This document shows, piece after piece, positions 4,740-39,395 of a stretch of 64,000 nucleotides of DNA. Each line of letters begins with the position of its first letter. Position 1 is the stretch's first letter. The notes below the pieces were generated by a model. The model saw only the letters and a program-made list of their open reading frames with translations, was not told the DNA's origin and ran no database searches. A program made the position numbers and the translations under genes. This DNA comes from Acidimicrobiia bacterium. Lineage in GTDB: Bacteria; Actinomycetota; Acidimicrobiia; IMCC26256; JACDBD01. The DNA lies in assembly GCA_035316025.1 (NCBI GenBank), contig DATFXL010000070.1, positions 7,547 through 71,546 on the forward strand. The letters are read 5' to 3'.

Positions 4740-6224
4740 ATGGCGCTCGGGTTCGAGTTGGCGCGCACGAACACCGCAATCGGCGGCGCCGCGCTCGCCC
4801 ACGCCCGGCGGCTCATGGCGTCGTGGCAGGTGCTGGCGGACCTGTGCTTCGCAGACCTCCTGTTCCTCGCTCCCGTGCACGGGGAGGAAGGTCACCGCTT
4901 CGTAGTGCTCGGCCAGGTCCGTCCCACCACCGACCAGACCCTGTACACGAACGACATGGTCGGCACGGTGGTCGGGGAGATCGAGCGGCCCCTCGTCAGC
5001 CGGGCCTGGCGCGACGGGGCGATCGTCGAGGGGGAGACCAAGGCCCTGGCGTCGACCGAGCGGGCCCGGATCAAGTGCGTCCCCGTCCGCTGCGAGGGCG
5101 AGCTCATCGGACTCGTCACCCGGGAGACGCCGCTGACGTTCGGCCGGCGTCCCGGGTCACTCGAACGGCAGTACTCCGAGGTGTTCGAGCGCTTCGCCCG
5201 GATGCTCACCGAAGGAAGCTTCCCGTTCCCGCGCGATGAGGTCGAGTTCGAGGACGCCCCCCGCGTCGCCGACGGCGTCATCATCCTCGACGGCGACGCG
5301 CAGATCCGCTTCGCGAGCCCGAACGCGATCAGCTCGTTGCACCGGATGGGCATCCATGCCTACGCGTCGGGGCAGCGGTTGGCCGAGATCGGGTTCGACC
5401 AGGACGCGGTCGATACCGCGCTGCGGGCCCGCCTGCCCGTTACCGAGGAGGTCGAGCGCGGCGACGTGTCCATCCTGATCCACGCCATCCCGCTGCTCGC
5501 GTCGGGGGACGCGCTCGGTGTGTTGCTGCTCATGCGCGACGTGACCGACCTCCGGCGACGCGACCGCATGCTGCTCTCGAAGGACGCGACCATCCGCGAA
5601 ATCCACCACCGCGTGAAGAACAACCTCCAGACGATCGCGGCGTTGCTTCGCCTCCAGGGGCGCCGTCTCGCCTCCGAGGAGGCGCAGGAGGCGATCGAGG
5701 AGTCGGAGCGGCGGATCCGGTCGATCGCGATCGTGCACGAGACGCTGTCACGGGAGGCCGGTGACGTCGTCCCGTTCCGCGACGTCGTGAAGCCGCTCGT
5801 GCGGTCGGTGGAGGAGACCGTCTCGACGCCCGACGTGAAGCTCCGCTTCGAGGTCGAGGGCGACGCCGGCAACCTCCGCGGCGACGTCGCCACCGCGCTC
5901 GCCGTGGTGCTCAACGAGCTGATGCAGAACGCGGTCGATCATGCGTTCCCGCGCGACGGCGCCGGCCCGAGCGAGGGGAGCGTGTTCGTGCGGGTGGCGC
6001 GCCTCGACCACGAGCTGATCGTCGAGGTGATCGACGACGGCGTCGGCCTCCCGTCGGGGTTCACGATGGAATCGTCGAGGGGGCTCGGCCTGTCGATCGT
6101 GCAGGCGCTCGTCCACGGCGAGCTCGGCGGCTCGATGGAGCTGGGCCCGTCGACGCGCGGGCCGGGCGGGACGTACGTCCGCTTGCGAGTCCCGCTGGCG
6201 CAGAGCGCGCCAGTCGAACTGTGA
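4740..6224 (+). CDS. pdtaS: Soluble GAF/PAS sensor histidine kinase, PdtaS-like (HisKA_2 type)
   Basis: H-box EIHHRVKNNLQTIAALLRLQ; HATPase motifs NELMQNAVDHAF, DDGVGLP and GLGLSIV; no TM segments. Adjacent to a whiB1-like gene, as in M. tuberculosis (Rv3220c/Rv3219). Confidence 0.8.
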   Translation: MALGFELARTNTAIGGAALAHARRLMASWQVLADLCFADLLFLAPVHGEEGHRFVVLGQVRPTTDQTLYTNDMVGTVVGEIERPLVSRAWRDGAIVEGETKALASTERARIKCVPVRCEGELIGLVTRETPLTFGRRPGSLERQYSEVFERFARMLTEGSFPFPRDEVEFEDAPRVADGVIILDGDAQIRFASPNAISSLHRMGIHAYASGQRLAEIGFDQDAVDTALRARLPVTEEVERGDVSILIHAIPLLASGDALGVLLLMRDVTDLRRRDRMLLSKDATIREIHHRVKNNLQTIAALLRLQGRRLASEEAQEAIEESERRIRSIAIVHETLSREAGDVVPFRDVVKPLVRSVEETVSTPDVKLRFEVEGDAGNLRGDVATALAVVLNELMQNAVDHAFPRDGAGPSEGSVFVRVARLDHELIVEVIDDGVGLPSGFTMESSRGLGLSIVQALVHGELGGSMELGPSTRGPGGTYVRLRVPLAQSAPVEL

Positions 6225-6250: not shown

Positions 6251-6571
6251 CTAGCTGGCGGCGCGCCGCTGCTTCGCGAGCCAGGCCTTCCGCAGCTTGC
6301 GGCGTTCTTCTTCGGTCGTCCCGCCCCAGACGCCCGCCTCCTGGTTGGTGGCGAGGGCGAACTCGAGGCATTCGTCGTTCACGTCGCAGGCGGTGCAGAT
6401 CCGCCTGGCGGTCTCGATCTGCTCGAGCGCGGGGCCGGTGCTGCCGATCGGGAAGAAGATGTCGGGGTCGGAATCGCGGCACGCAGAGCGATCGCGCCAC
6501 GCGTCCACGTCCCAGTCGTGGGTTCTGATCCAAGTGAGCGCCACGAAGCCTCCGGTACTCGTGGTCTTCAT
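6251..6571 (-). CDS. whiB: WhiB-family Fe-S transcription factor (WhiB1-like)
   Basis: This is the C-terminal 106 codons of the 6251..7261 ORF, starting at the internal ATG (6571..6569). It carries the four-Cys pattern C-x27-C-x2-C-x5-C (SACRD...RICTACDVNDEC), the GVWGG turn and a basic tail. The upstream part of the ORF is antisense to glpQ. Confidence 0.85.
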   Translation of the reverse strand: MKTTSTGGFVALTWIRTHDWDVDAWRDRSACRDSDPDIFFPIGSTGPALEQIETARRICTACDVNDECLEFALATNQEAGVWGGTTEEERRKLRKAWLAKQRRAAS

Positions 6572-6730
6572 GCGTCGTCGTACGACTGCAGAACCTGCGC
6601 TCGTGCGCACGTTCACAAGCATCCTCGGCCTGCCCCGCTCGAGGTGACACCGCAGAGTATTGACCGCAGAACGGGCGCGCAAGGGGCAATTTTCGTCTGT
6701 CGGGCGGCCTGACCTGCGGTTCTGCGACGA

Positions 6731-7447
6731 ATGACCACTGCCGTCCCACGCGTTCTGGCGCACCGGGGCGCCACCGCGGTGGCGCCGGGGAACACGCTCG
6801 AGGCGTTCGTGGCCGCGAGCGCGCTCGGGGCCGACGGCGTCGAGCTCGACGTGCACCGGACGGCCGACGGCGGGCTTGTCGTCCACCACGACGCCAGCGC
6901 GCCCGGGCTGGGGGTGCTCGCGGAGCGCACTCGAGCCGAGATCCGGGCCGCCCGGCCCGAGATCCCCACCCTCGACGAGGCGCTCGAGGCGTGCGCAGGG
7001 ATGCTCGTGAACATCGAGGTGAAGAACCTGCCCGGCGACGCCGACTACGACCCGGACGAGGCCGTGGCGGCCGGCGTGGTCGAGCTGCTCACGCGGCGAG
7101 GCCTCCGGGACGACGTGCTGGTCTCGTCGTTCAACCTCGAGTCCGTCGATCGCGTGCGCGAGCTCGACACCTCGCTCCCGACCGGGTTCCTCGTGCTCGT
7201 CGGCATGGACCCGGTCGACGGGGTCGACCTGGCGCACTCCCACGGGCACGGCGCCGCGCATCCCGATGTGCGCGCGCTCGCACGCGGAGCCGCCGCCGCA
7301 ACGATCTCACGCGCCCACGACCTCGGGATGACGGTGAACGTGTGGACCGTGAACGACGAGGAGGAGATGCGGCGGCTCGCCGCCGCCGGCGCGGACGCCC
7401 TCATCACCGACGTCCCCGACGTTGCCCGCCGCGTGCTGGGCGCGTAA
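6731..7447 (+). CDS. Glycerophosphodiester phosphodiesterase family protein
   Basis: LAHRGA..PGNTLEAF..GADGVELDVHRTADGGLVVHHD catalytic His/Glu/Asp pattern of the GDPD family. Confidence 0.8.
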   Translation: MTTAVPRVLAHRGATAVAPGNTLEAFVAASALGADGVELDVHRTADGGLVVHHDASAPGLGVLAERTRAEIRAARPEIPTLDEALEACAGMLVNIEVKNLPGDADYDPDEAVAAGVVELLTRRGLRDDVLVSSFNLESVDRVRELDTSLPTGFLVLVGMDPVDGVDLAHSHGHGAAHPDVRALARGAAAATISRAHDLGMTVNVWTVNDEEEMRRLAAAGADALITDVPDVARRVLGA

Positions 7448-7451
7448 CGCA

Positions 7452-8369
7452 TCATGGGGGCATGACGATCGTGAGCGCGTCGGGCATCCACGAGATCGTG
7501 AGGTGCTCGGTGTCGCCGAGGTAGTCGCCGTCGATCTGCCAGGGAAACGGTCCGTCTCCGACGACCGTGAGCGACCGCACATCGCGGCGCTGGAGAACCT
7601 TCGGGTGTTGCATCAGTCGCTGCCCGCCGTTGAGCGCGGCGGCCGCCCCGCCGAGGACCGTCGCCAGGCCGATCGAACGGAACAGCGTCACGGTGAGCGG
7701 CACGTCGAGGCCGGCGTGCGGAGCGAGCATCAGCGGCCGCTTCCCGAGGTATGCCCAGGGTCGTTGGTTCGAGACGATCGTGAAAGCGGAATCGCCGAGC
7801 GACTCGCCGTCCCCGAGCTCCACCCGGAACCGGGGCCGGCGGCGGTCGTACCGGCGCAACCACGTGTCGATCGTGGCGGCGACGAACAGTGGGTGGGTCC
7901 CGTACCGCTTCAGGAAGGATCGCCGCTCGACCCGGGCGATGACGGCCGCGTCGAAACCGAGGCCGGCATGGAAGAGGAAGCGCCGACCCTCGGCGACGCC
8001 GAGGCCGACGCGCTCGAACCTGCGTCGGTCGAGCGACTGCGCGAGTCGCTCGGCGGCCTGCACGGGGTCGTAGGCGACGCCGATGCTGCGCGCGAAGACG
8101 TTGGTCGATCCGCCCGGCAGAGGCGCCAGGGCGGTGGTGCTTCCGGCCAGGCCGTCGGCGGCTTCGCTGAGCGTCCCGTCACCGCCGAGCACGACGACCA
8201 CGTCGACGCCCTCGAGGGCGGCGCCCCGCGCGATGCGGGCGGCGTGCCCGCGCCGCGACGTTTCCTCGACCTCGAGCTTGTGATCGGCACCCAGGACACG
8301 TTGTACGAGCACGCGCCGCCGCGCCGTGACCGCCGTCGCCGTCTCGTTCACGATCAGGAGAAGACGCAT
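7452..8369 (-). CDS. Diacylglycerol/lipid kinase family protein (YegS/DagK type)
   Basis: Starts at the internal ATG 8369..8367 (MRLLLIVNE). Has the GGDGT motif (VVLGGDGTLSEA) and PLPGGSTNVFAR. Confidence 0.8.
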   Translation of the reverse strand: MRLLLIVNETATAVTARRRVLVQRVLGADHKLEVEETSRRGHAARIARGAALEGVDVVVVLGGDGTLSEAADGLAGSTTALAPLPGGSTNVFARSIGVAYDPVQAAERLAQSLDRRRFERVGLGVAEGRRFLFHAGLGFDAAVIARVERRSFLKRYGTHPLFVAATIDTWLRRYDRRRPRFRVELGDGESLGDSAFTIVSNQRPWAYLGKRPLMLAPHAGLDVPLTVTLFRSIGLATVLGGAAAALNGGQRLMQHPKVLQRRDVRSLTVVGDGPFPWQIDGDYLGDTEHLTISWMPDALTIVMPP

Positions 8370-30273: not shown

Positions 30274-31998
30274 ATGAGTGACCAAGGGCTCGACCGATCG
30301 GTCCTCGACGGAAAGGACCGCGAGGAGCTCCATCAGATCGCGGGCGCGATGGGCGTCCAGGCGCCGACACGCATGAAGAAGGCCGACCTCATCGACGCCA
30401 TCCTCGGCGCTTCCGGCGACGGCAACGCCCCCGCCGGTGACATTTCCGCCGCCTCCGGCGGTTCCGACGGAGGCGACCGTCCGAAGCGGGTCCGGTCCCG
30501 CCGCACGTCAGAGAGCGACGACCCGATGGACGCGCTCGCCGCCGAAGAGGAGGCGATCGCGGCGGCGGGGGACGGTGCCGACATCCCTGCCGAGCCGCGC
30601 CCGGTCTCGCGACCCGAAGGAAGGGCGAACGCATCCGGAAGGGCCGCACGGACCGCCCGCGGCTCGGACACTTCCGCGAGTGCGACGACCACGACAGAGG
30701 CGCGAGCCGAGCCCCAGGGAGGCGACGGCGACGGCAGCGGTACTCGCACGGCCCCGCGCATCGAGGCCGAGGACGAGCGCCAGTCGTACGGCGAGGGCAA
30801 TCGCCGTCGCCGCCGGCGCCGCGGTCGCGATCGCCAGCAGGACGGTGAGCCGCGCGAGTTCCAGGGCGAGCCGGTCGAGACGCAGGGTCTGCTCGACCTG
30901 CGGGACGAGGGCTACGGGTTCCTTCGGGCGACGAGCTACCTCCCCGGGCCCAAGGACGTCTACGTGTCGGCGTCGCAGGTCCGCCGCTTTGCCCTCCGCA
31001 AGGGCGACTACCTCAACGGCTACGCGCGACCGCAGGCGAGCAACGAGAAGTACCCGGCGCTGTTGCGCGTCGACGAGGTCAACGGCCTCCCGACCGAAGC
31101 CGCACGCGATCGATCGAAGTTCGAGGACCTCACCCCGCTGTTCCCCGACTCGAAGCTCCGCCTCGAAATGGGGGACGACCCCTCCAACATCACCGGGCGG
31201 ATCGTCGATCTCATCTCGCCGATCGGAAAGGGTCAGCGCGGCCTGATCGTCTCGCCGCCCAAGGCGGGGAAGACCACGATCCTGAAGCAAATCGTGTACT
31301 CGGTCGAACGCAACAACCCCGAGGTGCACCTCATGGTGCTGCTCGTCGACGAGCGCCCCGAAGAGGTCACCGACATGCGCCGGCACGTCAAGAACGGCGA
31401 GGTCGTCGCGAGCACCTTCGACCGGCCGTCCGACGAGCACACACAGGTCGCCGAGCTCACGATCGAGCGAGCCAAGCGGCTGGTCGAGATGGGCAAGGAC
31501 GTCGTGATCATCCTCGACGGGATCACGCGCCTCGCCCGCGCCTACAACCTCTCGGCGCCGGCGTCGGGCCGCATCCTGTCGGGTGGCGTGGACTCCACGG
31601 CGCTCTACCCGCCGAAGCGGTTCTTCGGCGCGGCCCGCAACATCGAGGAGGGTGGCTCGCTCACGATCGTGGCGACGGCGCTCATCGAGACGGGCAGCCG
31701 CATGGACGAGGTGATCTTCGAGGAGTTCAAGGGCACTGGGAACATGGAGCTACGGCTCGACCGGCGGCTGTCCGAGCGGCGGATCTACCCGTCGATCGAC
31801 GTCGAGGCGTCGAGCACCCGCCACGAGGAGCTTCTCTTCGACCGCAACCAGCTTCAGCAGGTGTGGAAGCTGCGCCGGGTTCTGAACGCCCTCGAGGAGG
31901 GGAAGGGTCTGGAGCTGCTGATCGACAAGATCCGCACGACCAAGAGCAACGACGAGTTCCTCGCCGAGATCGCCAAGGCGCCCACGCCCGGCTCATAG
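30274..31998 (+). CDS. rho: Transcription termination factor Rho, with a long Arg/Asp/Gly-rich N-terminal insertion
   Basis: N-terminal Rho_N ([23 protein letters not shown]), an insertion of about 150 aa of low complexity, a CSD-like RNA-binding domain (GYGFLR), Walker A (SPPKAGKTT), and Q/R loops. Confidence 0.95.
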
Positions 31999-32163
31999 GC
32001 ATGCGCACGGGGTGCGGCTCGCGCTCAGCGTGACGCCCGAGAAATCGTCTCCTCTTTCGCTGGGCAGAGGCGTCGTCGACAACCCCTCGGGGCCGCCCCT
32101 CGAACCCAGCGATCCCACTGGCCGGCGCCATTCGGGTCGGCACGCAACTAGATTGGGAGCATC

Positions 32164-32382
32164 ATGAAGACTGATATCCACCCCGATTACGTCGAGTGCT
32201 CGGTGCGTTGCTCGTGCGGCAACACGTTCACGACGCGTTCGACCGTCCCTGAGCTCCGGGTCGAGCTGTGCTCGGAGTGTCATCCCTTCTACACGGGCAA
32301 GCAGAAGCTCGTGGATACCGGCGGCCGCGTCGAGCGGTTCCAGCGCCGGTACGCGAAGCAGGGCGGCAAGGCCAAGGCTTGA
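32164..32382 (+). CDS. rpmE: 50S ribosomal protein L31, zinc-binding (C+) form
   Basis: MKTDIHPDY..., with CxC (CSCG) and CxxC (CSEC) zinc ligands, and FYTGKQ. Confidence 0.95.
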
Positions 32383-33320
32383 TGGCCCGACGGCCCGAGC
32401 CCCGCTACATGGGCGGCCAGGCCGTCATGGAAGGCGTGATGATGCGCGGCGCCAACAGCTGGGCCGTCGCCGTGCGAACGCCGGAAGGTGACATCGAGCT
32501 CGAGACGCAGGACGTGCCGCGCTGGTCGGAGCGTTACTCGCGCATCCCGTTGGTGCGAGGCGTCATGGCGCTCGCCGAGTCCCTCACGCTCGGGTTCAAG
32601 GCGCTGGCGTGGTCGGCGAACCGGCAGGTCCCCGAGGAGGAGCGCCTCTCGAAAGGCGCGATCGGCGGCACGATCGCCATCGCACTGGCGGTCTTCACCG
32701 GTCTGTTCATCCTGCTGCCCGCCTTCGGCGCCCGCGGCCTCGATCGTTGGGTTCCCCTCGAGGGCTTCTGGCTCCACGCGGCCGAGGGCGCGCTCCGGCT
32801 CGGGCTGTTCATCGGCTACCTGCTGCTCATCGGGCGCTTACGCGACGTGAAGCGCGTGTTCCAGTACCACGGCGCCGAGCACAAGGCGATCGCGGCATAC
32901 GAGAACGGCGTGGAGGTTTCGCCGGAGTCGGCGCAGCGGTTCACGACCGAGCACGTCCGCTGCGGGACGAACTTCCTGCTGACAGTGTTCGTGATCACGA
33001 TCGTCGTCTACGCGTTCGTGGGCCGTCCCGACTGGCCGTTGCTCATCGCGTCGCGGGTGTTGTTGATCCCCTTGATCGCCGGGATCGCCTACGAGGTGAT
33101 CCGCTTCGCGGCCCGGCACATGGACTCACGCGTCGTCCGGATCCTGATGCGTCCCGGTCTCGCTCTCCAGCAGCTGACGACACGCGAGCCCACCCTCGAC
33201 CAGCTCGAGGTGGCGATTGCCTCGCTCCGGGCTGTGATGACCGCCGAGCAGCTCGCCGAGGTCCAGGCCCGGCCGCCCGCTCCGGCGGCGGCGCCCCGTC
33301 CCGCGCTCGGCACTGCCTGA
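32382..33320 (+). CDS. DUF1385-family membrane protein
   Basis: The ATG at 32382 overlaps the rpmE stop. Has GGQAVMEGVMMRG and YHGAEHKAIAAYE motifs and several TM segments. It sits in the conserved rpmE/prfA neighbourhood. Confidence 0.8.
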   Translation: MARRPEPRYMGGQAVMEGVMMRGANSWAVAVRTPEGDIELETQDVPRWSERYSRIPLVRGVMALAESLTLGFKALAWSANRQVPEEERLSKGAIGGTIAIALAVFTGLFILLPAFGARGLDRWVPLEGFWLHAAEGALRLGLFIGYLLLIGRLRDVKRVFQYHGAEHKAIAAYENGVEVSPESAQRFTTEHVRCGTNFLLTVFVITIVVYAFVGRPDWPLLIASRVLLIPLIAGIAYEVIRFAARHMDSRVVRILMRPGLALQQLTTREPTLDQLEVAIASLRAVMTAEQLAEVQARPPAPAAAPRPALGTA

Positions 33321-33366
33321 CCGGCCCCCGCCGGACCAGTCACGGAGTGCGCGAAGAGGGATCTCG

Positions 33367-33969
33367 TCATCCCTTCACCCAGGCGCGAGTGCCGGCGCGC
33401 GCCGCCGCCGTCGCCAGGCCGACGAACTCCTCGTCACGCGCGGGGTCGCCGAACTCGAGCCAGTTCAGGACCGCGACGACGAGCTCGTCGACGAGCGTGT
33501 GGGCGGCCCATTCGTACAGGTCGGGCTGGACCTGTCCAGCGAGGAGGGCGCGGGACGCATCGACGGACCGTTCCCGGAGCTCTCGTGCGTAGTCGGCGAA
33601 CTGCGGCTCGCGCGCCGCGTGACGCCACAGGAGCTGGAACCCGTCGGGATCCTCACGTGCGACCGTGAGCAACGAGCGCGCGCCGACACCGCCTTCGCCC
33701 TTCGAGTAGCCGACCACGAACTCCTCGGCGAGACGATCGAACACCTGCTGGAGCACGGCCCGGTACAGCTCTTCCTTCCCGGCGAAGTGCCGGTAGACGA
33801 TGAGCTTGGTGATGCCCGACGCGGCGGCGATGTCCTCCATGGACGTCGCCGCGTACCCGGCCCGGGCGAAGGCGCGGCCGGCGCCCCGGAGGATCGTCTC
33901 CTGGCGGGCGGCGCGGGGCAGAGGGCCGGTGCGGGCGGGGTCGACGACGGTGGGGTCGGCACTTGCCAT
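33367..33969 (-). CDS. TetR-family transcriptional regulator
   Basis: HTH: FARAGYAATSMEDIAAASGITKLIVYRHFAGKEELY. I place the start at ATG 33969 (MASADP). The alternative ATG at 33981 lies inside the operator palindrome. The rest of the 567-aa ORF is antisense to the next gene and is rejected. Confidence 0.8.
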   Translation of the reverse strand: MASADPTVVDPARTGPLPRAARQETILRGAGRAFARAGYAATSMEDIAAASGITKLIVYRHFAGKEELYRAVLQQVFDRLAEEFVVGYSKGEGGVGARSLLTVAREDPDGFQLLWRHAAREPQFADYARELRERSVDASRALLAGQVQPDLYEWAAHTLVDELVVAVLNWLEFGDPARDEEFVGLATAAARAGTRAWVKG

Positions 33970-33970
33970 A

Positions 33971-33990
33971 GGTATACTCATGAGTATACC
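33971..33990. promoter_or_regulatory. Perfect 20-bp AT-rich palindrome (probable TetR operator carrying face-to-face TATACT -10 boxes)
   Basis: GGTATACTCATGAGTATACC equals its own reverse complement. TATACT reads on the + strand at 33973..33978 and on the - strand at 33988..33983. It lies in the divergent gap between the TetR gene and the 34024 gene. Confidence 0.65.
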
Positions 33991-34023
33991 CTTGCGTGTG
34001 TACCGGTCAACGGAGGGTGACGC

Positions 34024-35124
34024 ATGAACCTCCAGCTGGAATGGACGGAGGACGAGCTCCTCGCCACGGACGACGTCGCCGAGCCGCTCGTGGTCGGCGG
34101 CGTCCGCTGTCACGGCGGATTCGACGACGGCGGCGCGTACCACTCGCCTCGCACGCGGCACCGCGTGCCGGCCATCGACGAGTGGCAGGAGCACCATGCG
34201 GCGACCTTCGGCACCGACCTGATCGACGTGCCGGTGTCGACGTGGCCCGAGACGTACCCGAACGTCGAGCAGGCGAAGTTCCTGATCCGTGAGGGAGTAC
34301 CGGGCCCCATCATCACGACGCTGACGCGCATCGGCACGGTCGAGGGCTTCGGGGCGATGATCCGCCATGCCAACGTCGGAGATCCGCAGCGCCACTTCGA
34401 CGAGAGCGTCGCCGGGACAGCGACGTCGCACCTCCACCGGGGGCTCTTCGAGGCGCATGCGCGCGACGAGGCCGGGTTCGACGAAGAAGCCGGCCACAAG
34501 CAGATGTGGTTCGCGGCCCGCGACGTCGCCTTCGACAACCCCGTCACCGAGGACGAGACAGCGCGGATGCTCGAGCGCATGGGCATCGGCGGTGGTGGGA
34601 GCGCGGCTCCCGATCCGCAGCGCATCCGCCGACAGATGGAGGAGGCGCGCGTCTTCGCCGACCTGGACCTCGACTTCGAGATGCTCGTCCAGCGGATGAT
34701 CAACATCCTCCTGATCGAGATCTCCGCGTTCCATACCTTCGCGTGGGCCGAGTCCGTGCTGTCCGACACGGATCTGGTCGACGGCGACGGCGACGCCGCC
34801 CGCTTGGTGTCGTACATCCGTCAAGACGAGACTCCACACGTCGAGTACCTGAAGACGGCACTCACCGAGATGCGAGACCGGTCCTTCGTCGGCGACTCGG
34901 GGCGGAAGTACCCCGGCACCGAGGTCGTCGGCAGCCTCTGGGAACGGGGCCTGGCCGACTCCCTCGGTCCCCGCCGCGAGCAGAACCTGGCCCTGACCCT
35001 GCGCGAGGTCGAGCACGCGCTCGATCGGAACCCGCGGCGTGCCGTCCTTCTCGAGGAATTCCACGCCCACGGCACCATCCGTCCGGCCGACGACGGCGCG
35101 TTCGTCGCCGCGAACACCTACTGA
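34024..35124 (+). CDS. Hypothetical protein with ferritin-like di-iron carboxylate-type motifs
   Basis: 366 aa with a good RBS (GGAGGG) before the ATG. No family is recognised by eye. It contains two ExxH motifs about 100 residues apart (DEEAGH and DETPH) plus candidate partner Glu residues (LFEAH, LLIEISAFH). Confidence 0.6.
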   Translation: MNLQLEWTEDELLATDDVAEPLVVGGVRCHGGFDDGGAYHSPRTRHRVPAIDEWQEHHAATFGTDLIDVPVSTWPETYPNVEQAKFLIREGVPGPIITTLTRIGTVEGFGAMIRHANVGDPQRHFDESVAGTATSHLHRGLFEAHARDEAGFDEEAGHKQMWFAARDVAFDNPVTEDETARMLERMGIGGGGSAAPDPQRIRRQMEEARVFADLDLDFEMLVQRMINILLIEISAFHTFAWAESVLSDTDLVDGDGDAARLVSYIRQDETPHVEYLKTALTEMRDRSFVGDSGRKYPGTEVVGSLWERGLADSLGPRREQNLALTLREVEHALDRNPRRAVLLEEFHAHGTIRPADDGAFVAANTY

Positions 35125-35132
35125 GGATCACC

Positions 35133-36500
35133 ATGAAGTTCGGGCTGTTCTACGAGCACCAGCTTCCCCGCCCCTGGGAAGAGAACTCCGAGTACACGCT
35201 GCTGCAGAACGCGCTCGAGCAGTGCGAGCTCGCCGACAAGCTCGGCATCCACACCTGCTGGGAGGTCGAGCACCACTTCCTCGAGGAATACAGCCACTCG
35301 AGCGCGCCCGAGGTCTTCCTCGCCGCCGTGTCGCAGCGCACCGAGCACATGCGGCTCGGGCACGGCATCGTGCAGAGTCCGCCGCCGTTCAACCACCCCG
35401 CCCGCGTCGCCGAGCGCATCTCGACGCTCGACCTCGTCTCGGGCGGGCGCGTCGACTTCGGCACGGGAGAGTCGTCGTCCGAAGCCGAGCTCGGCGGCTT
35501 CCTCATCGACCCGATCGAGAAGCGCGAGATGTGGGAGGAGGGCCTGCGCGTCGCGACGCGGTGTATGACCGAGGAGCCATTCACCGGTCACCACGGCAAG
35601 TACGTCACGATGCCGCCGCGCAACGTCGTCCCCAAGCCCCGGCAGAAGCCCCATCCGCCGGTCTGGGTCGCGTGCAGCCGGCGCGACACGATCCACCTCG
35701 CGGCGCAGAAGGGGATCGGCGCCCTGACGTTCGCGTTCATCGACCCTGAGGACGCCCGCCACTGGGTCGGCGACTACTACGGAACGCTCGAGCGCGACGG
35801 CGTGCCGATCGGCGACGCCGTCAATCCGAACCTGGCCTGCGTGACGACGTTCATGTGCCATCCCGACGAGGACGAGGCCATGCAGCGCGGCCTGGAGGGC
35901 GCCAACTTCTTCGGCTACTCGCTCGCGCACTACTACGTCTTCGGCCGCCACCAACCCGGCGTCAGCGACGTGTGGGCCGAGTACCAGCGGCAACGGGGGG
36001 AGCAGGGCTTCGATCCCAGCGCCGTCCAAGCGGCGGCCGCGAACTCCGACCGGCTCGGTGCCAAGGTCGTGGAAGGCGGGCTGGGCGGCCTGCGGGGCGC
36101 CGTCGGCACTCCCGACCAGATCCGCGAGTTCCTCCTCCGCTACGAGGAGTGCGGCGTCGACCAGGTCATCTTCGTGAGCCAGTCGGGCAAGAACCGCCAC
36201 GAGCACATCATGGAGAGCCTGGAGCTGTTCGGGCGGGAGGTGCTCCCCGAATTCCTCGTGCGAGACGAACGAGCGGTGAAGGACAAGCAGAAGCGCCTGG
36301 AGCCCGTCATCGACCAGGTCATGGCGCGCAAACCGGCCGAGGACCACCCGCCGCTGCCGACCGACGACTACGCCTTTCCGGCCATCCCCCGTGCCATCGC
36401 CGACCGGTCCGGCTCCGACGACTTCCACAAGTTCCTCGACCAGGTCGCCGAGGACACCGCGCAGGGCGACAACTCCGTCATCGAGAACGCGCTGCGCTGA
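35133..36500 (+). CDS. LLM-class (luciferase-like) flavin/F420-dependent oxidoreductase
   Basis: Starts at ATG 35133 (MKFGLFYEHQLPRPW). Typical LLM TIM-barrel features (WEVEHHF, LDLVSGGRVDFGTG, GTPDQIREFL). 8 nt downstream of the preceding gene. Confidence 0.85.
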   Translation: MKFGLFYEHQLPRPWEENSEYTLLQNALEQCELADKLGIHTCWEVEHHFLEEYSHSSAPEVFLAAVSQRTEHMRLGHGIVQSPPPFNHPARVAERISTLDLVSGGRVDFGTGESSSEAELGGFLIDPIEKREMWEEGLRVATRCMTEEPFTGHHGKYVTMPPRNVVPKPRQKPHPPVWVACSRRDTIHLAAQKGIGALTFAFIDPEDARHWVGDYYGTLERDGVPIGDAVNPNLACVTTFMCHPDEDEAMQRGLEGANFFGYSLAHYYVFGRHQPGVSDVWAEYQRQRGEQGFDPSAVQAAAANSDRLGAKVVEGGLGGLRGAVGTPDQIREFLLRYEECGVDQVIFVSQSGKNRHEHIMESLELFGREVLPEFLVRDERAVKDKQKRLEPVIDQVMARKPAEDHPPLPTDDYAFPAIPRAIADRSGSDDFHKFLDQVAEDTAQGDNSVIENALR

Positions 36501-36530
36501 CGCAGCACCACGGCGTGACGACGTCACGCC
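36491..36530 (+). terminator. Two consecutive GC hairpins at the end of the LLM gene
   Basis: GCTGCG-CTGA-CGCAGC (36491..36506) spans the stop codon. GGCGTGACG-A-CGTCACGCC (36512..36530) is a 19-nt palindrome. They could be a terminator and/or a protein-binding site in front of prfA. Confidence 0.4.
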
Positions 36531-36532
36531 GG

Positions 36533-36538
36533 TACCCT
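36533..36538 (+). promoter_or_regulatory. -10 box TACCCT placed 7 nt before the GTG of prfA (predicts a leaderless mRNA)
   Basis: GGTACCCT, then gaacgaa (7 nt), then GTG at 36546. No Shine-Dalgarno. The geometry is identical to 28791..28806. Confidence 0.45.
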
Positions 36539-36545
36539 GAACGAA

Positions 36546-37616
36546 GTGTTCGAGCACCTGGCTGACCTGGAGACCGAGCTCGAGAAGCTCGAGTCGCAGC
36601 TCCCCGAGCTCTACGCGAGCGGGGACCAGGCTGCCGCGCGCGACGCTGGACGCCGCCACGCCGAACTGAAGCCCGTCGTCGACGCCTACCGCGAATACCG
36701 CCGGACCGAAGCGGACGTCGCGGACGCGCGCGAGCTGCTCGAGGGCGAGCAGGACGCCGAGATGCGCGAGTACCTCCAGGGCGAGCTGGCTGAGCGGGAA
36801 GCTCGCGTCGCCGAGCTCGAGGCGGCGCTCAGAGAGCTGCTCGTCCCGCGCGATCCCAACGACGGCAAGAACGTCATCGTGGAGATCCGGGGTGCCGAAG
36901 GCGGCGACGAGGCGAACCTCTGGGCGGGAGATCTCTTCGAGATGTACCGCCGCTACGCCGAGCTGCGCGGGTGGGATTTCGAAGTGCTCTCGAGCCAGCC
37001 GGCCGAGATGGGTGGCTACCGCGACGTCACCTTCGTCGTGAAGGGCACGGACGCCTGGGCTCGACTCAAGCACGAAGCCGGACCGCACCGGGTGCAGCGC
37101 GTACCGGTCACCGAGAGCCAGGGTCGGGTGCACACGAGCGCGGCGACGGTCGCGGTCCTCCCCGAGGCGGACGCCGTGGACATCGAGATCGATCCCAACG
37201 AGCTCGAGGTCGACGTGTACCGGTCGAGCGGGCCCGGCGGTCAGTCCGTGAACACGACCGACTCGGCGGTGCGGATCACGCATTTGCCGACCGGCCTCGT
37301 GGTCACCTGTCAGGACGAGAAGAGCCAACTCCAGAACAAGGAGAAGGCGCTGCGGATCCTGCGTTCACGCCTCCTTCAGACCGAGCGGGAGCGGCAGGCG
37401 GAGGAGGTGTCGTCGGCCCGGCGCGACCAAGTGAAGGGCGGCGGCCGTTCGGAGAAGATCCGCACCTACAACTTCAAGGAAAAGCGGGTGACCGACCACC
37501 GCATCGGTCTCACACTTCACGCGCTCGACCAGGTTCTCGCGGGCCAGCTCGACCCGATCGTCGACGAGCTGATCGCGGCGGAGCGCGCCGAGCAACTCGC
37601 GTCCGCGTCCGCCTGA
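36546..37616 (+). CDS. prfA: Peptide chain release factor 1
   Basis: GGQ motif (SSGPGGQSVNTTDSAVR), the PxT tripeptide context (RVPVTESQGRVHTS), and 356 aa. Confidence 0.95.
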   Translation: MFEHLADLETELEKLESQLPELYASGDQAAARDAGRRHAELKPVVDAYREYRRTEADVADARELLEGEQDAEMREYLQGELAEREARVAELEAALRELLVPRDPNDGKNVIVEIRGAEGGDEANLWAGDLFEMYRRYAELRGWDFEVLSSQPAEMGGYRDVTFVVKGTDAWARLKHEAGPHRVQRVPVTESQGRVHTSAATVAVLPEADAVDIEIDPNELEVDVYRSSGPGGQSVNTTDSAVRITHLPTGLVVTCQDEKSQLQNKEKALRILRSRLLQTERERQAEEVSSARRDQVKGGGRSEKIRTYNFKEKRVTDHRIGLTLHALDQVLAGQLDPIVDELIAAERAEQLASASA

Positions 37617-37619
37617 TCC

Positions 37620-38522
37620 GTGCCGACCTGGCGGGACCTGCGCGTCGAAGCCGAGGGGACGCTCGCCGGCGCCGGCATCGAGAACGCGCCGAGCGAGGCG
37701 CGCTGGATGGTCGAGCACGTCTCCGGCTTCGACGCCGCCGAGCTCGTCACCGCCGAGGACGAGACGGCCACGACGCGCGCCGCCGCCCAGCTCGACGAGC
37801 TCCTCGGGCGGCGCACCGGCGGCGAGCCGCTGCAGTACGTGCTCGGTTGCTGGCTGTTCCTCGGCCTCGAGCTCATGGTCGACCCGCGGGTGCTGATCCC
37901 CCGACCCGAGACAGAGGTGACGGCCCAGGTCGCCATCGACGAAGCCGTACGTCTCGGCGCCCGGCGCGGCCGTCCCGATCCGTGGGCGGGCGCGGCGACG
38001 ACGTACGCGATCGCCGACCTCGGGACCGGTGCGGGGGCCCTCGCACTGGCTCTGGCCGGCGAGCTTCCCGACGCCGAGGTGTGGGGAACGGATATCAGCG
38101 AAGACGCGCTCGCGGTCGGTCGCGCCAATCTGGCCGGTACGGGCCTGCCCTCGACGCGCGTCCGGCTCGCCGCCGGTTCGTGGTTCGACGCGCTGCCACG
38201 CAGCTTGCGGGGCCGCTTGCGTCTCGTCGTGTCGAACCCGCCGTACGTCGCCGAGTCGGAGGCGGCGGACCTGCCGGTCGAGTTGCAGCACGAACCGCGG
38301 CCGGCGCTGGTCAGTGGCCCGACGGGGATGGAAGCGATCGAGGAGCTCGCGCACGAAGCACCTGGGTGGCTCGATGTCGCCGGCACGTTCGTGTGCGAGA
38401 TCGCGCCGCAGCGAGCGGAGGCGGCGGTCAAGGTCGCGACGGCGGCCGGCTTCGAGGAGGTGCTCCTCCGTCCCGACCTCGCGGGACGTGATCGAGTTCT
38501 GGTCGCGCGGATGCTTGGGTAG
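37620..38522 (+). CDS. prmC: Release-factor glutamine N5-methyltransferase
   Basis: SAM motif DLGTGAGAL and the NPPY catalytic motif (VVSNPPYV). Immediately downstream of prfA. Confidence 0.9.
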   Translation: MPTWRDLRVEAEGTLAGAGIENAPSEARWMVEHVSGFDAAELVTAEDETATTRAAAQLDELLGRRTGGEPLQYVLGCWLFLGLELMVDPRVLIPRPETEVTAQVAIDEAVRLGARRGRPDPWAGAATTYAIADLGTGAGALALALAGELPDAEVWGTDISEDALAVGRANLAGTGLPSTRVRLAAGSWFDALPRSLRGRLRLVVSNPPYVAESEAADLPVELQHEPRPALVSGPTGMEAIEELAHEAPGWLDVAGTFVCEIAPQRAEAAVKVATAAGFEEVLLRPDLAGRDRVLVARMLG

Positions 38523-38532
38523 GGTGGCTCCG

Positions 38533-38766
38533 ATGGCCGATCGGGGGGACGACCTCGACGTAAACGCGATGCTCCAGCGCTTCCGCGACCGGGCCGACGC
38601 CGTAAGAGAGCGCCAACTGCCGCCGGTGGCGGGCGCCGAACGTCAGCGTTTCATCGAACAGGCGGAGGTCGACTACATGGATTTCGCAATCGTTGCCGAC
38701 GCCTCGTGGACCTTCGACGACGGTGTGTTGACCCTACGGGTGGACCTGCGCCCGCAGGAGTCGTGA
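38533..38766 (+). CDS. Small hypothetical protein (77 aa)
   Basis: ATG at 38533 (MADRGDDLDVNAMLQRF...). The stop overlaps the GTG of the next gene. No recognisable motif. Coding status is inferred from position and translational coupling only. Confidence 0.45.
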   Translation: MADRGDDLDVNAMLQRFRDRADAVRERQLPPVAGAERQRFIEQAEVDYMDFAIVADASWTFDDGVLTLRVDLRPQES

Positions 38767-39395
38767 GCTCCGAGCTTGACCTTCCGATCGTCGACCACCT
38801 GCTGTCGACGACGCGCGCGGTGCGAAAGCGGCTCGACCTCGACCGTCCCGTTCCGCCCGAAGTGGTGGAGAACTGCCTCCGACTCGCGATCCAGGCGCCG
38901 ACCGGTTCGAACCGCCAGGGCTGGCACTGGGTCGTCGTCACCGACGCCCACAAGCGCGCCGCCCTCGCCGACATGTACCGGGACGGCTTCGGGCCCTACA
39001 TGGACCGAGCGCGCAGCGGCTCGGAGAGCTTGACCCGCGTCGGCGAGAGCGCGTTGTGGCTGGCCGAGCGATTGGAGCGCGTTCCGATACACGTCATCCC
39101 GTGTATCGAGGACTACACGCGGGGGCGCGCCCACGGCGGGGTGTGGGCATCCATCTATCCGGCGGTGTGGAGCTTCCAGCTCGCGTTGCGCAGCCGCGGG
39201 CTCGGTTCGGTGCTCACGACGCTGCACCTCCCGCGTGCCGCCGACGCTGCCGCGCTGCTCGGGATTCCCGACGGCGTGCTGCAGGCCGGCCTCGTCCCGG
39301 TCGCGTACTACACCGGCGGCGACTTCAAGCCCGCGCAGCGCCGCCCCGTCGAGGAGGTCACATCCTGGAACGAGTGGGGTAAGCCCCGCGCGTGA
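38763..39395 (+). CDS. Nitroreductase-family protein
   Basis: GTG at 38763. Typical motifs: TTRAVRKRLDLDRPV, AIQAPTGSNRQGWHWVVV. Confidence 0.8.
   Translation: MSSELDLPIVDHLLSTTRAVRKRLDLDRPVPPEVVENCLRLAIQAPTGSNRQGWHWVVVTDAHKRAALADMYRDGFGPYMDRARSGSESLTRVGESALWLAERLERVPIHVIPCIEDYTRGRAHGGVWASIYPAVWSFQLALRSRGLGSVLTTLHLPRAADAAALLGIPDGVLQAGLVPVAYYTGGDFKPAQRRPVEEVTSWNEWGKPRA

Follow-up and report, generated by a model that had tools for sequence, protein, structure and literature searches.

A candidate ligand-gated oxidation module built around an unannotated protein family in the core genome of an Acidimicrobiia lineage

Analysis of a 64-kb stretch of DNA from an Acidimicrobiia bacterium (contig DATFXL010000070.1; hereafter the window, meaning the whole stretch, to which all coordinates refer) drew our attention to a TetR-family regulator gene that diverges from a two-gene operon. 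The first operon gene, here termed X, encodes a member of a family without annotation and the second a luciferase-like monooxygenase (LLM). Based on the conservation of residues in X, the recurrent pairing of X with LLM and a conserved palindrome in the intergenic region, we propose with moderate confidence that the three genes constitute a ligand-gated oxidation module which one lineage of the Acidimicrobiia carries in its core genome. The regulator and its operator are the ordinary part of this system; its interest lies in the X family, with its candidate metal site and conserved flavoenzyme partner. The locus had been singled out in a prior sequence-only reading, whose gene coordinates, gene lengths, motifs and 8-nt gap between X and LLM all proved correct; its further claims are taken up below where the pertinent results are given.

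The X family and its candidate metal site

X has no Pfam match above threshold, no NCBIfam match and no sequence relative in the PDB, in keeping with the earlier statement that it resembles nothing recognized; a weak Pfam match was to DUF455 (E=0.008). The family is large, with more than 4034 clusters of homologs at 90% identity and 588 at 50%; all named matches among the 120 listed are ‘hypothetical’, and relatives occur in at least 448 GTDB species genomes, nearly all of them Acidimicrobiia. As the exact sequence of X from the window has no match in public contigs, orthologs were compared instead. In an alignment of 48 sequences reaching down to 27% identity P42, A50, W54, P79, E107, H158, W162, R166, E232, H272 and G293 are invariant, and at least 46 of the sequences carry H30, Y39, R43, R47, H136, H145, D148, E149, D268, E269 and E282 (47 each for E149 and E269). 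The AF2 model computed from a deeper alignment (pLDDT 93.0, pTM 0.90) is mainly helical, with an N-terminal β-hairpin region carrying the conserved signature HGG..G.Y.PR...R..A...W and a C-terminal helical domain.

Within this background the conserved acidic and histidine residues are laid out as E107 / H145-xx-D148-E149 ... H158 / E232 / D268-E269-xx-H272, a pattern that fits the E / (H)xxxExxH / E / ExxH arrangement of ferritin-like di-iron enzymes. Two sets of E plus ExxH are thus conserved across the family, on or at the ends of predicted helices (Table 1), the first ExxH being contiguous in two members. The sequence-only reading had pointed to two ExxH motifs, DEEAGH (residues 153-158) and DETPH (268-272), which lie 114 residues apart, and to Glu residues upstream of them. 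This holds for H158, E269, H272, E107 and E232 down to 27% identity but not for E155, the Glu of the contiguous first ExxH, which is found in only 29 of the 48 members; the conserved carboxylate is instead E149. Two residues separate E149 from the His in two members (DELGH and DEAGH, i.e. a plain ExxH), eight do so in thirty members, and most of the remainder have 10-14. The sequence DEAGHxxxxGGH occurs in several members, and from these we consider it likely that the loop splitting the first ExxH is a duplicated copy of the motif. In the model the helix of E232 continues for 14 residues beyond it and E269 comes 12 residues into the next helix, which would be consistent with an antiparallel helix pair sharing one site. 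In light of this layout we propose that X is probably a divergent ferritin-like di-metal carboxylate protein with E107, H145, E149, H158, E232, E269 and H272 as candidate ligands, and that the label ‘di-iron-like’ given to it earlier is likely to be apt.

Several remote similarities point in the same direction. A Foldseek search of the model against the PDB yielded no match with E<0.001; its weak list consists for the most part of di-metal carboxylate proteins and includes NrdF (4dr0; E=0.18, probability 0.82), R2 (2xof), R2lox (4ac8) and MiaE (2itb; TM-score 0.51 normalized on the target), along with stearoyl-ACP desaturases and the heme-oxygenase-like proteins CADD, BesC, AetD and HamA. When hidden Markov models (HMMs) of the X family were run against PDB sequences, bacterioferritins ranked highest (E=0.03), together with a designed di-iron protein; ‘IrqDEtpHVeyLkt’ of X was aligned with ‘ILaDEEtHIDYLET’ of bacterioferritin, a helix with the ferroxidase ligands E127 and H130. 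A Pfam scan of 27 members recovered single weak matches to Ferritin_2 (1.3e-3), DUF455 (8e-3) and the ribonucleotide reductase small chain (0.21), all from the ferritin clan; none of the 27 matched the AurF family PF11583 at E<=1. An hhalign comparison with the profile of an AurF-like family (P=4.7e-4, probability 33%, 46 columns) pairs E232 of X with the invariant E182 and D268-E269-xx-H272 with D211-E212-xx-H215, and a relaxed alignment also pairs D148-E149 with D132-E133(-xx-H136). These five lines, each non-significant singly, agree on a di-metal protein and make this assignment probable.

X thus shares with AurF/CmlI, MiaE, DUF455, R2 and bacterioferritin the pattern E ... (D)ExxH ... E ... 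(D)ExxH in a helical protein. Its H145-xxx-E149, with a His four residues ahead of the ligand Glu, further recalls AurF, whose ligand motif is HxxxExxH; in X the extra His belongs to the first half-site and not to the second. It differs from the known ferritin-like enzymes in reaching no family threshold, in matching at Foldseek E>=0.18 in spite of a model with a pLDDT of 93, in the 8-14-residue loop that splits the first ExxH in most members, and in its additional N-terminal β-hairpin region and C-terminal helical domain. Two other identities, an HD domain and a hemerythrin, were considered for X and rejected: it has no HD dyad, and the layout of its motifs fits a ferritin-like protein better.

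Three observations speak against a ferritin-like site. None of the matches between X and the di-metal families attains significance (hhalign probability 33%, Foldseek E>=0.18, HMM E>=0.0013, Pfam scores below gathering thresholds), which leaves the ferritin-like fold proposed earlier as a likely one; the second half-site alone aligns with any confidence; and the additional conserved H30, H136, D148, D268 and E282 exceed what a di-iron site needs, so that another kind of site is possible. X could also be a di-metal enzyme of a different architecture, namely an HDO (a heme-oxygenase-like di-iron oxidase), a Mn/Fe protein or one with a hemerythrin-like HxxxE site. The HDOs HamA, BesC, AetD and CADD (E=0.5-4.6, TM<=0.41) score about as weakly as the R2 proteins, the Mn-using R2lox and NrdF figure among the Foldseek matches, and H145-xxx-E149 would equally fit HxxxE. 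We nevertheless regard such an architecture as unlikely, given that the best target-normalized TM-score belongs to the ferritin-like MiaE, that the profile matches (bacterioferritin, Ferritin_2, DUF455 and the AurF-like family) are all ferritin-like, and that the H-x3-D/E-x2-H motif which HDOs carry on one helix is absent from X, no HxxxD/ExxH lying on a single helix of its C-terminal half. Alternatively, X could be no metalloenzyme at all but a helical protein that serves LLM as an accessory, as a scaffold or in substrate delivery, or some other binding protein, with the conserved Glu, His and Asp residues serving structure or ligand binding. That X matches no metalloprotein significantly, in sequence or in fold, would accord with this, as would the conserved N-terminal Y39, R43 and R47, which could bind a phosphate-bearing ligand; moreover, systems of the PaaA/PaaC type have a ferritin-like partner without metal. 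This too appears improbable to us: four Glu/His positions are invariant and three nearly so from 27 to 100% identity in an E / ExxH / E / ExxH arrangement, all weak matches point to di-metal proteins and to the helices that bear their ligands, and X stands alone or with only a TetR gene in some loci, suggesting that it can act without LLM.

The flavoenzyme partner and the inheritance of the module

LLM matches the PF00296 profile over its full length, from position 1 to the last, 314 (165.9 bits; cut-off 27.9), upholding the earlier assignment of the second operon gene to the LLM class. It reaches no NCBIfam subfamily cut-off, and FMN-type (TIGR04027, 7e-26) and F420-type (TIGR03619, 3e-23) models score alike. 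Since its best solved relatives are flavin-dependent, namely 7bip (E=3e-26), 8cbb, MsnO8 (4us5) and LuxA (1brl), it is likelier to depend on FMN than on F420. A paper dealing with the biosynthesis of the polyketide rishirilide (PMC8093152) cites 7bip. With LuxA, RslO1 (7bip) and MsnO8 LLM shares the full-length domain, a LuxA-like N-terminus (MKFG...) and an EHHF motif, and it differs from LuxA-type enzymes in its length of 455 residues, which includes a C-terminal extension of about 80 residues.

We then examined 84 loci with X relatives, 80 of which come from GTDB contigs (one genome per species) and cover 55-89% identity, a bias towards close relatives that stems from the use of the closer alignment as the scan query. 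An LLM ortholog (62-94% identity, consistently more conserved than X) directly follows X in 54 of 81 assessable loci, and the pair persists at only 30% X identity, where an X homolog (P0239) is followed by an LLM 55% identical to that of the window with a gene overlap of 4 nt; the co-occurrence of the two genes to which the sequence-only reading had looked is hence observed. In a neighbor-joining tree of X, X-LLM pairs appear in several clades, one clade has TetR and X only, and some X genes stand alone. We conclude from these distributions that the pair is ancient and frequent and not obligatory. About one third of the loci have X without LLM, and the LLM subfamily (47-55% identity) is found without X in Streptomyces type I polyketide synthase (PKS) clusters and beside acyl-CoA genes on a haloarchaeal plasmid, so that a complex of the two proteins is not required, though a physical complex is possible. 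Where LLM is absent, the genes downstream of X are heterogeneous and mostly on the opposite strand, with no recurrent third partner, in ORF calls that are noisy at this high GC. Full-text literature searches for a pairing of luciferase-like proteins with di-iron or ferritin-like proteins returned nothing relevant. The economical reading is that X and LLM act in sequence on one substrate. Besides the occurrence of each gene without the other, two points tell against the proposed role of LLM as a flavoenzyme partner, the F420-type NCBIfam models that also match at about 1e-23 and the fact that the module encodes no flavin reductase.

As the earlier reading had it, the module does interrupt the rpmE...prfA-prmC backbone, sitting between the DUF1385 gene and prfA. 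The view that it is therefore accessory is not supported. All X genes whose locus contains DUF1385 or prfA, including that of the window, form one clade in the neighbor-joining tree, and the order DUF1385-(TetR)-X-LLM-prfA is kept across this clade, in about 40 species-level genomes and down to about 57% X identity. The GC content of the module (0.67-0.71) equals that of its flanks in a window of 69.7% GC, neither mobile-element genes nor flanking repeats were detected at the module, and no X homolog was found in 72,556 plasmids; members of the LLM subfamily that are carried on plasmids occur without X, in a general polyketide or acyl-CoA context. The clade-wide position, the flank-like GC and the absence of plasmid homologs argue against a recent insertion, and we conclude that the module is an old, vertically inherited lineage trait. 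A horizontally acquired island in the rpmE-prfA backbone, as might be suspected from the close proximity of rpmE, prfA and prmC in most bacteria and from the paralogous copies of X in other genomic contexts, is very improbable in the face of the common gene order within a single X clade, the flank-like GC and the absence of mobile elements, repeats and plasmid-borne X. Separately, three Acidimicrobiia-type X loci (L056, L073 and L082) lie on contigs labelled as metagenome-assembled genomes of Bifidobacterium breve, Proteobacteria and Archangium sp.; these are probably mis-binned contigs or mislabelled records.

The neighborhoods of more distant X homologs offer some contextual information on possible substrates. 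One such homolog (P0174, 32-33% identity) belongs to a cluster (L089) with thiolase, ChsH2, acyl-CoA synthetase and short-chain dehydrogenase/reductase genes and is followed by a gene for an AurF-family di-iron protein (6498-7583; PF11583, 6e-19); the two are adjacent and co-directional, each encoding 361 residues, so that a di-iron enzyme of two subunits is conceivable. The family of this AurF-like neighbor is the one whose profile was compared with X by hhalign (see above). A second, unrelated locus (L100) also combines a distant X with an AurF-family gene (PF11583; 1699-2673), here in a cluster with KS and KASIII. Another homolog (L085) is found in an island with CoA-transferase, TauD and LLM genes, and one (L093) lies between a transglutaminase-core gene and a P450. 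In a further locus (L091, 5625-7005) the homolog P0256 (27-28% identity) directly follows a gene for a 102-residue nitrile-hydratase-like leader peptide, with YcaO and ThcOx/nitroreductase genes that mark a thiazole/oxazole-type peptide cluster, and some members of the family may accordingly modify peptides. The contexts of P0190, beside a GH2 glycosidase, and of P0227, on a short contig, are uninformative. The X family is clearly used in several pathways. The FasR-like regulator (see below), these distant X contexts and the PKS and acyl-CoA neighborhoods in which the LLM subfamily occurs hint at hydrophobic acyl, lipid or acyl-CoA chemistry, which we offer as only a lead.

The operator and its regulator

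The intergenic region between tetR and X spans 54 bp, 20 of which are taken up by a perfect palindrome, GGTATACTCATGAGTATACC, with 1 nt between it and the tetR start codon and 33 nt between it and the X ATG. A repeat search confirmed the palindrome reported earlier: its arms (33971-33980 and 33981-33990) have 10 nt each, are 100% complementary and are joined without a spacer. GTATAC-N6-GTATAC with up to two mismatches occurs once in the window, against 0.09 occurrences expected from shuffles. The earlier reading had also called this by far the most AT-rich spot of its neighborhood. It is indeed the richest, the 20-mers near 33961-33975 having 12-14 A/T and the top one (14/20, at 33968) overlapping the palindrome, but not by far, as other patches with at least 12/20 A/T are present in the 32.0-36.5 kb region upstream of rpmE (32146-32162) and in one 20-mer at 34696. 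As a side observation, the window holds two perfect 20-bp palindromes, the second, GGCGCCACCGCGGTGGCGCC at 6767-6786, being GC-rich; mononucleotide shuffles yield about 0.4 such palindromes per window.

When the intergenic regions of orthologous loci, most of them close orthologs, are aligned, they share a conserved block, CTTGCCAT-A-GGTATACT(C)-NNNN-(G)AGTATACC-CTTG-N5-GTGTACCGGTCAA, in which the operator arms GGTATACT and AGTATACC are kept and the central 4 nt vary (CATG, CGTG, GACG, CACG, TGCG or GTTG). Constant arms around a free center are the pattern expected for a site read by a symmetric dimer. Of 82 assessable loci, 54 have a divergent TetR ortholog no more than 400 bp away from X, and a scan of the 300 bp upstream of X for GTATAC-N4-8-GTATAC with at most two mismatches detected the motif in 45 of the 54 loci with a divergent TetR gene as opposed to 5 of the 30 without (Fisher p=3e-9); two of the five exceptional loci (L030 and L034) carry a TetR gene further upstream. 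This association, together with the conserved arms and the overlap with the -10 of the tetR promoter described below, makes the role of the palindrome as operator of the divergent TetR gene, which the sequence-only reading had suggested, well supported.

TATACT is found on both strands by symmetry (plus, 33973-33978; minus, 33988-33983), as stated earlier, although a good -35 accompanies the minus copy alone. The latter belongs to a promoter-like site of tetR that matches the consensus at 10 of 12 positions and is the sole such site in 33300-36700 (shuffles, 0.0); its -10 sits in the right arm of the palindrome, and GGTCAA, the complement of its -35, is conserved in close orthologs. On the plus strand either candidate, TTGCCA-16-TATACC or the TATACT at 33973-33978, puts its -10 within the operator. 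As the palindrome would overlap both -10 elements, a single bound repressor could shut off both genes; blocking of both promoters by one TetR dimer is what the geometry of the site suggests. A third GTATAC-like hexamer, GTGTAC, lies 8 nt past the palindrome and is conserved among the orthologous intergenic regions; in L014-L016 the operator motif is matched best by GTATAC-N8-GTGTAC. The hexamer may serve as an additional half-site or be part of the promoter. The block GTGTACCGGTCAA (33998-34010) contains this hexamer plus the complement of the tetR -35 and may be a second, overlapping site for the same regulator. In one genome (L016) the intergenic region measures 157 bp because short units, GAGCACGAACT and GGCGCACGAAC, are repeated in tandem between operator and X (about 5835-5990), a local repeat growth in the 5' leader of X. 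A leaderless tetR beginning with the ATG in the middle of the palindrome (in frame, MSIPMASADP...) was also considered and rejected, as the -10 would then stop 1 nt short of the start codon.

The TetR protein contains PF00440 (TetR_N) at residues 26-72 (53.5 bits against a cut-off of 24). Its nearest solved structure, similar over almost its full length (residues 5-179, E=1e-12), is FasR of M. tuberculosis (6o6p/6o6n), which senses long-chain acyl-CoA (PMC7382501). With 61.6 bits it falls well short of the equivalog cut-off of 330 for the NCBIfam FasR model NF053731, and we accordingly treat FasR as its nearest relative and not as its ortholog; at this distance an acyl-like effector is only hinted at. 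A TetR helix-turn-helix protein with a palindromic operator in a short divergent gap that overlaps promoters is the common layout of the TetR-tetA, QacR and AcrR cassettes. FasR on the other hand activates fas, whereas the geometry here implies repression. This raises the alternative that the regulator activates the operon, or regulates only itself, without repressing the operon. Its closest characterized relative, solved and curated, is an activator (PMC7382501), and the plus-strand promoter is weak by consensus, with TTGCCA-16-TATACC or a TATACT devoid of a -35 as the candidates; both points weigh against repression of X and LLM. Yet a site that overlaps the tetR -10, ends 33 nt from the X start and lies in a 54-bp gap has the geometry typical of repression, and the FasR model scores 61.6 against 330. 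Divergent TetR-target pairs are, moreover, usually repressor systems. We hence deem activation or pure autoregulation quite unlikely and retain repression of both genes as the preferred interpretation.

Locus features, proposed operation and significance

The features of the locus are collected in Table 1. X and LLM form a two-gene operon in which the stop codon of X is overlapped by GAGGA and lies 8 nt from the LLM start, so that the two genes would be translationally coupled. The Shine-Dalgarno-like sequence is situated 6 nt upstream of the X ATG, and a G-rich run ahead of this start codon recurs in the orthologs in the intergenic alignment. The hairpin between LLM and prfA (minimum free energy -19 kcal/mol, z=-1.85 versus shuffles) has no U tract, and no canonical terminator was found; the operon may end at this hairpin, or the hairpin may influence how much transcription continues into prfA. 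An Rfam search of 31.5-38 kb recovered no RNA element. Among the neighboring genes, the longest DUF1385 ORF (GTG at 32268) overlaps rpmE (32268-32382); orthologs have about 304 residues and the Pfam domain begins at residue 93, and the real start is probably an ATG near 32382 (MARRPEPRY...). Two genes past prmC lies an ORF of 229 residues (38706-39395), at a position which in L004, though not in L002, is held by a PF00881 nitroreductase-family gene. Nitroreductase-type proteins can reduce flavins, and its product could in principle be a candidate feeder of LLM.

Table 1. Positions of genes and sequence elements in the window, and of the candidate ligands in the X protein (residue numbers)
Feature	Position	Strand	Remarks
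rho	30274-31998		
rpmE	32164-32382		72 aa
DUF1385 gene	end 33320		PF07136, E=2e-78
TetR-family regulator gene	33367-33969	minus	200 aa; PF00440, E=2.1e-14
Operator, perfect 20-bp palindrome GGTATACTCATGAGTATACC	33971-33990		arms GGTATACTCA + TGAGTATACC; core GTATAC-N6-GTATAC
tetR promoter-like site	33983-34010	minus	-35 TTGACC 34010-34005, 16-nt spacer, -10 TATACT 33988-33983
Third GTATAC-like hexamer, GTGTAC	33998-34003		8 nt past palindrome, within conserved block GTGTACCGGTCAA
Shine-Dalgarno-like GGAGGG	34012-34017	plus	read from sequence
X	34024-35124	plus	366 aa, family without annotation
LLM	35133-36500	plus	455 aa; PF00296, E=1.9e-48
Hairpin	36511-36531	plus	GC-rich, 9-bp stem, 3-nt loop, between LLM stop and prfA start
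prfA	36546-37616		GTG start
prmC	37620-38522		
E107 of X	helix 94-115		AF2 model
H145, E149 of X	end of helix 134-150		AF2 model
H158 of X	start of helix 158-169		AF2 model
E232 of X	helix 216-246		AF2 model
E269, H272 of X	break (residue 269) in helix 257-284		AF2 model

We propose that the module operates as follows. A dimer of the TetR-family protein would bind the palindrome, whose conservation is observed across orthologous loci, and would in this position cover the -10 of the tetR promoter and that of the divergent X-LLM promoter, switching both off. A small molecule, probably hydrophobic or acyl-like, would release it. The two-metal, probably di-iron, center of X would then activate O2 as an oxidase or oxygenase, and the LuxA-type LLM would catalyze an adjacent oxidation, either of the same substrate or within the same pathway, with reduced flavin supplied from elsewhere. 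A bolder version, which we regard as rather unlikely, would make X a new branch of di-iron oxygenases with a three-His/four-carboxylate site and a first ExxH split by a duplicated loop, obligately joined to a LuxA-type LLM as a new two-enzyme O2-activating system. This would perform an acyl-thioester or lipid modification conserved throughout a lineage of Acidimicrobiia, under the control of a TetR repressor that senses acyl compounds.

Di-iron enzymes of the ferritin-like and related types catalyze N-oxygenation, desaturation, decarboxylation and C-C cleavage, and new chemistry is still emerging from them. A large family with neither a Pfam or NCBIfam model nor a structural relative, but with a confidently predicted fold and a candidate metal site, is therefore a target for enzyme discovery. 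The old X-LLM pairing and the defined TetR operator allow reporter assays and ligand screening. Acidimicrobiia are abundant in soils and waters; the matching genomes are almost all metagenome assemblies, and such an experimental handle would hence be useful. For annotation, the locus carries the caution that a break in a ‘universal’ gene neighborhood can be an old inherited trait and not an island.

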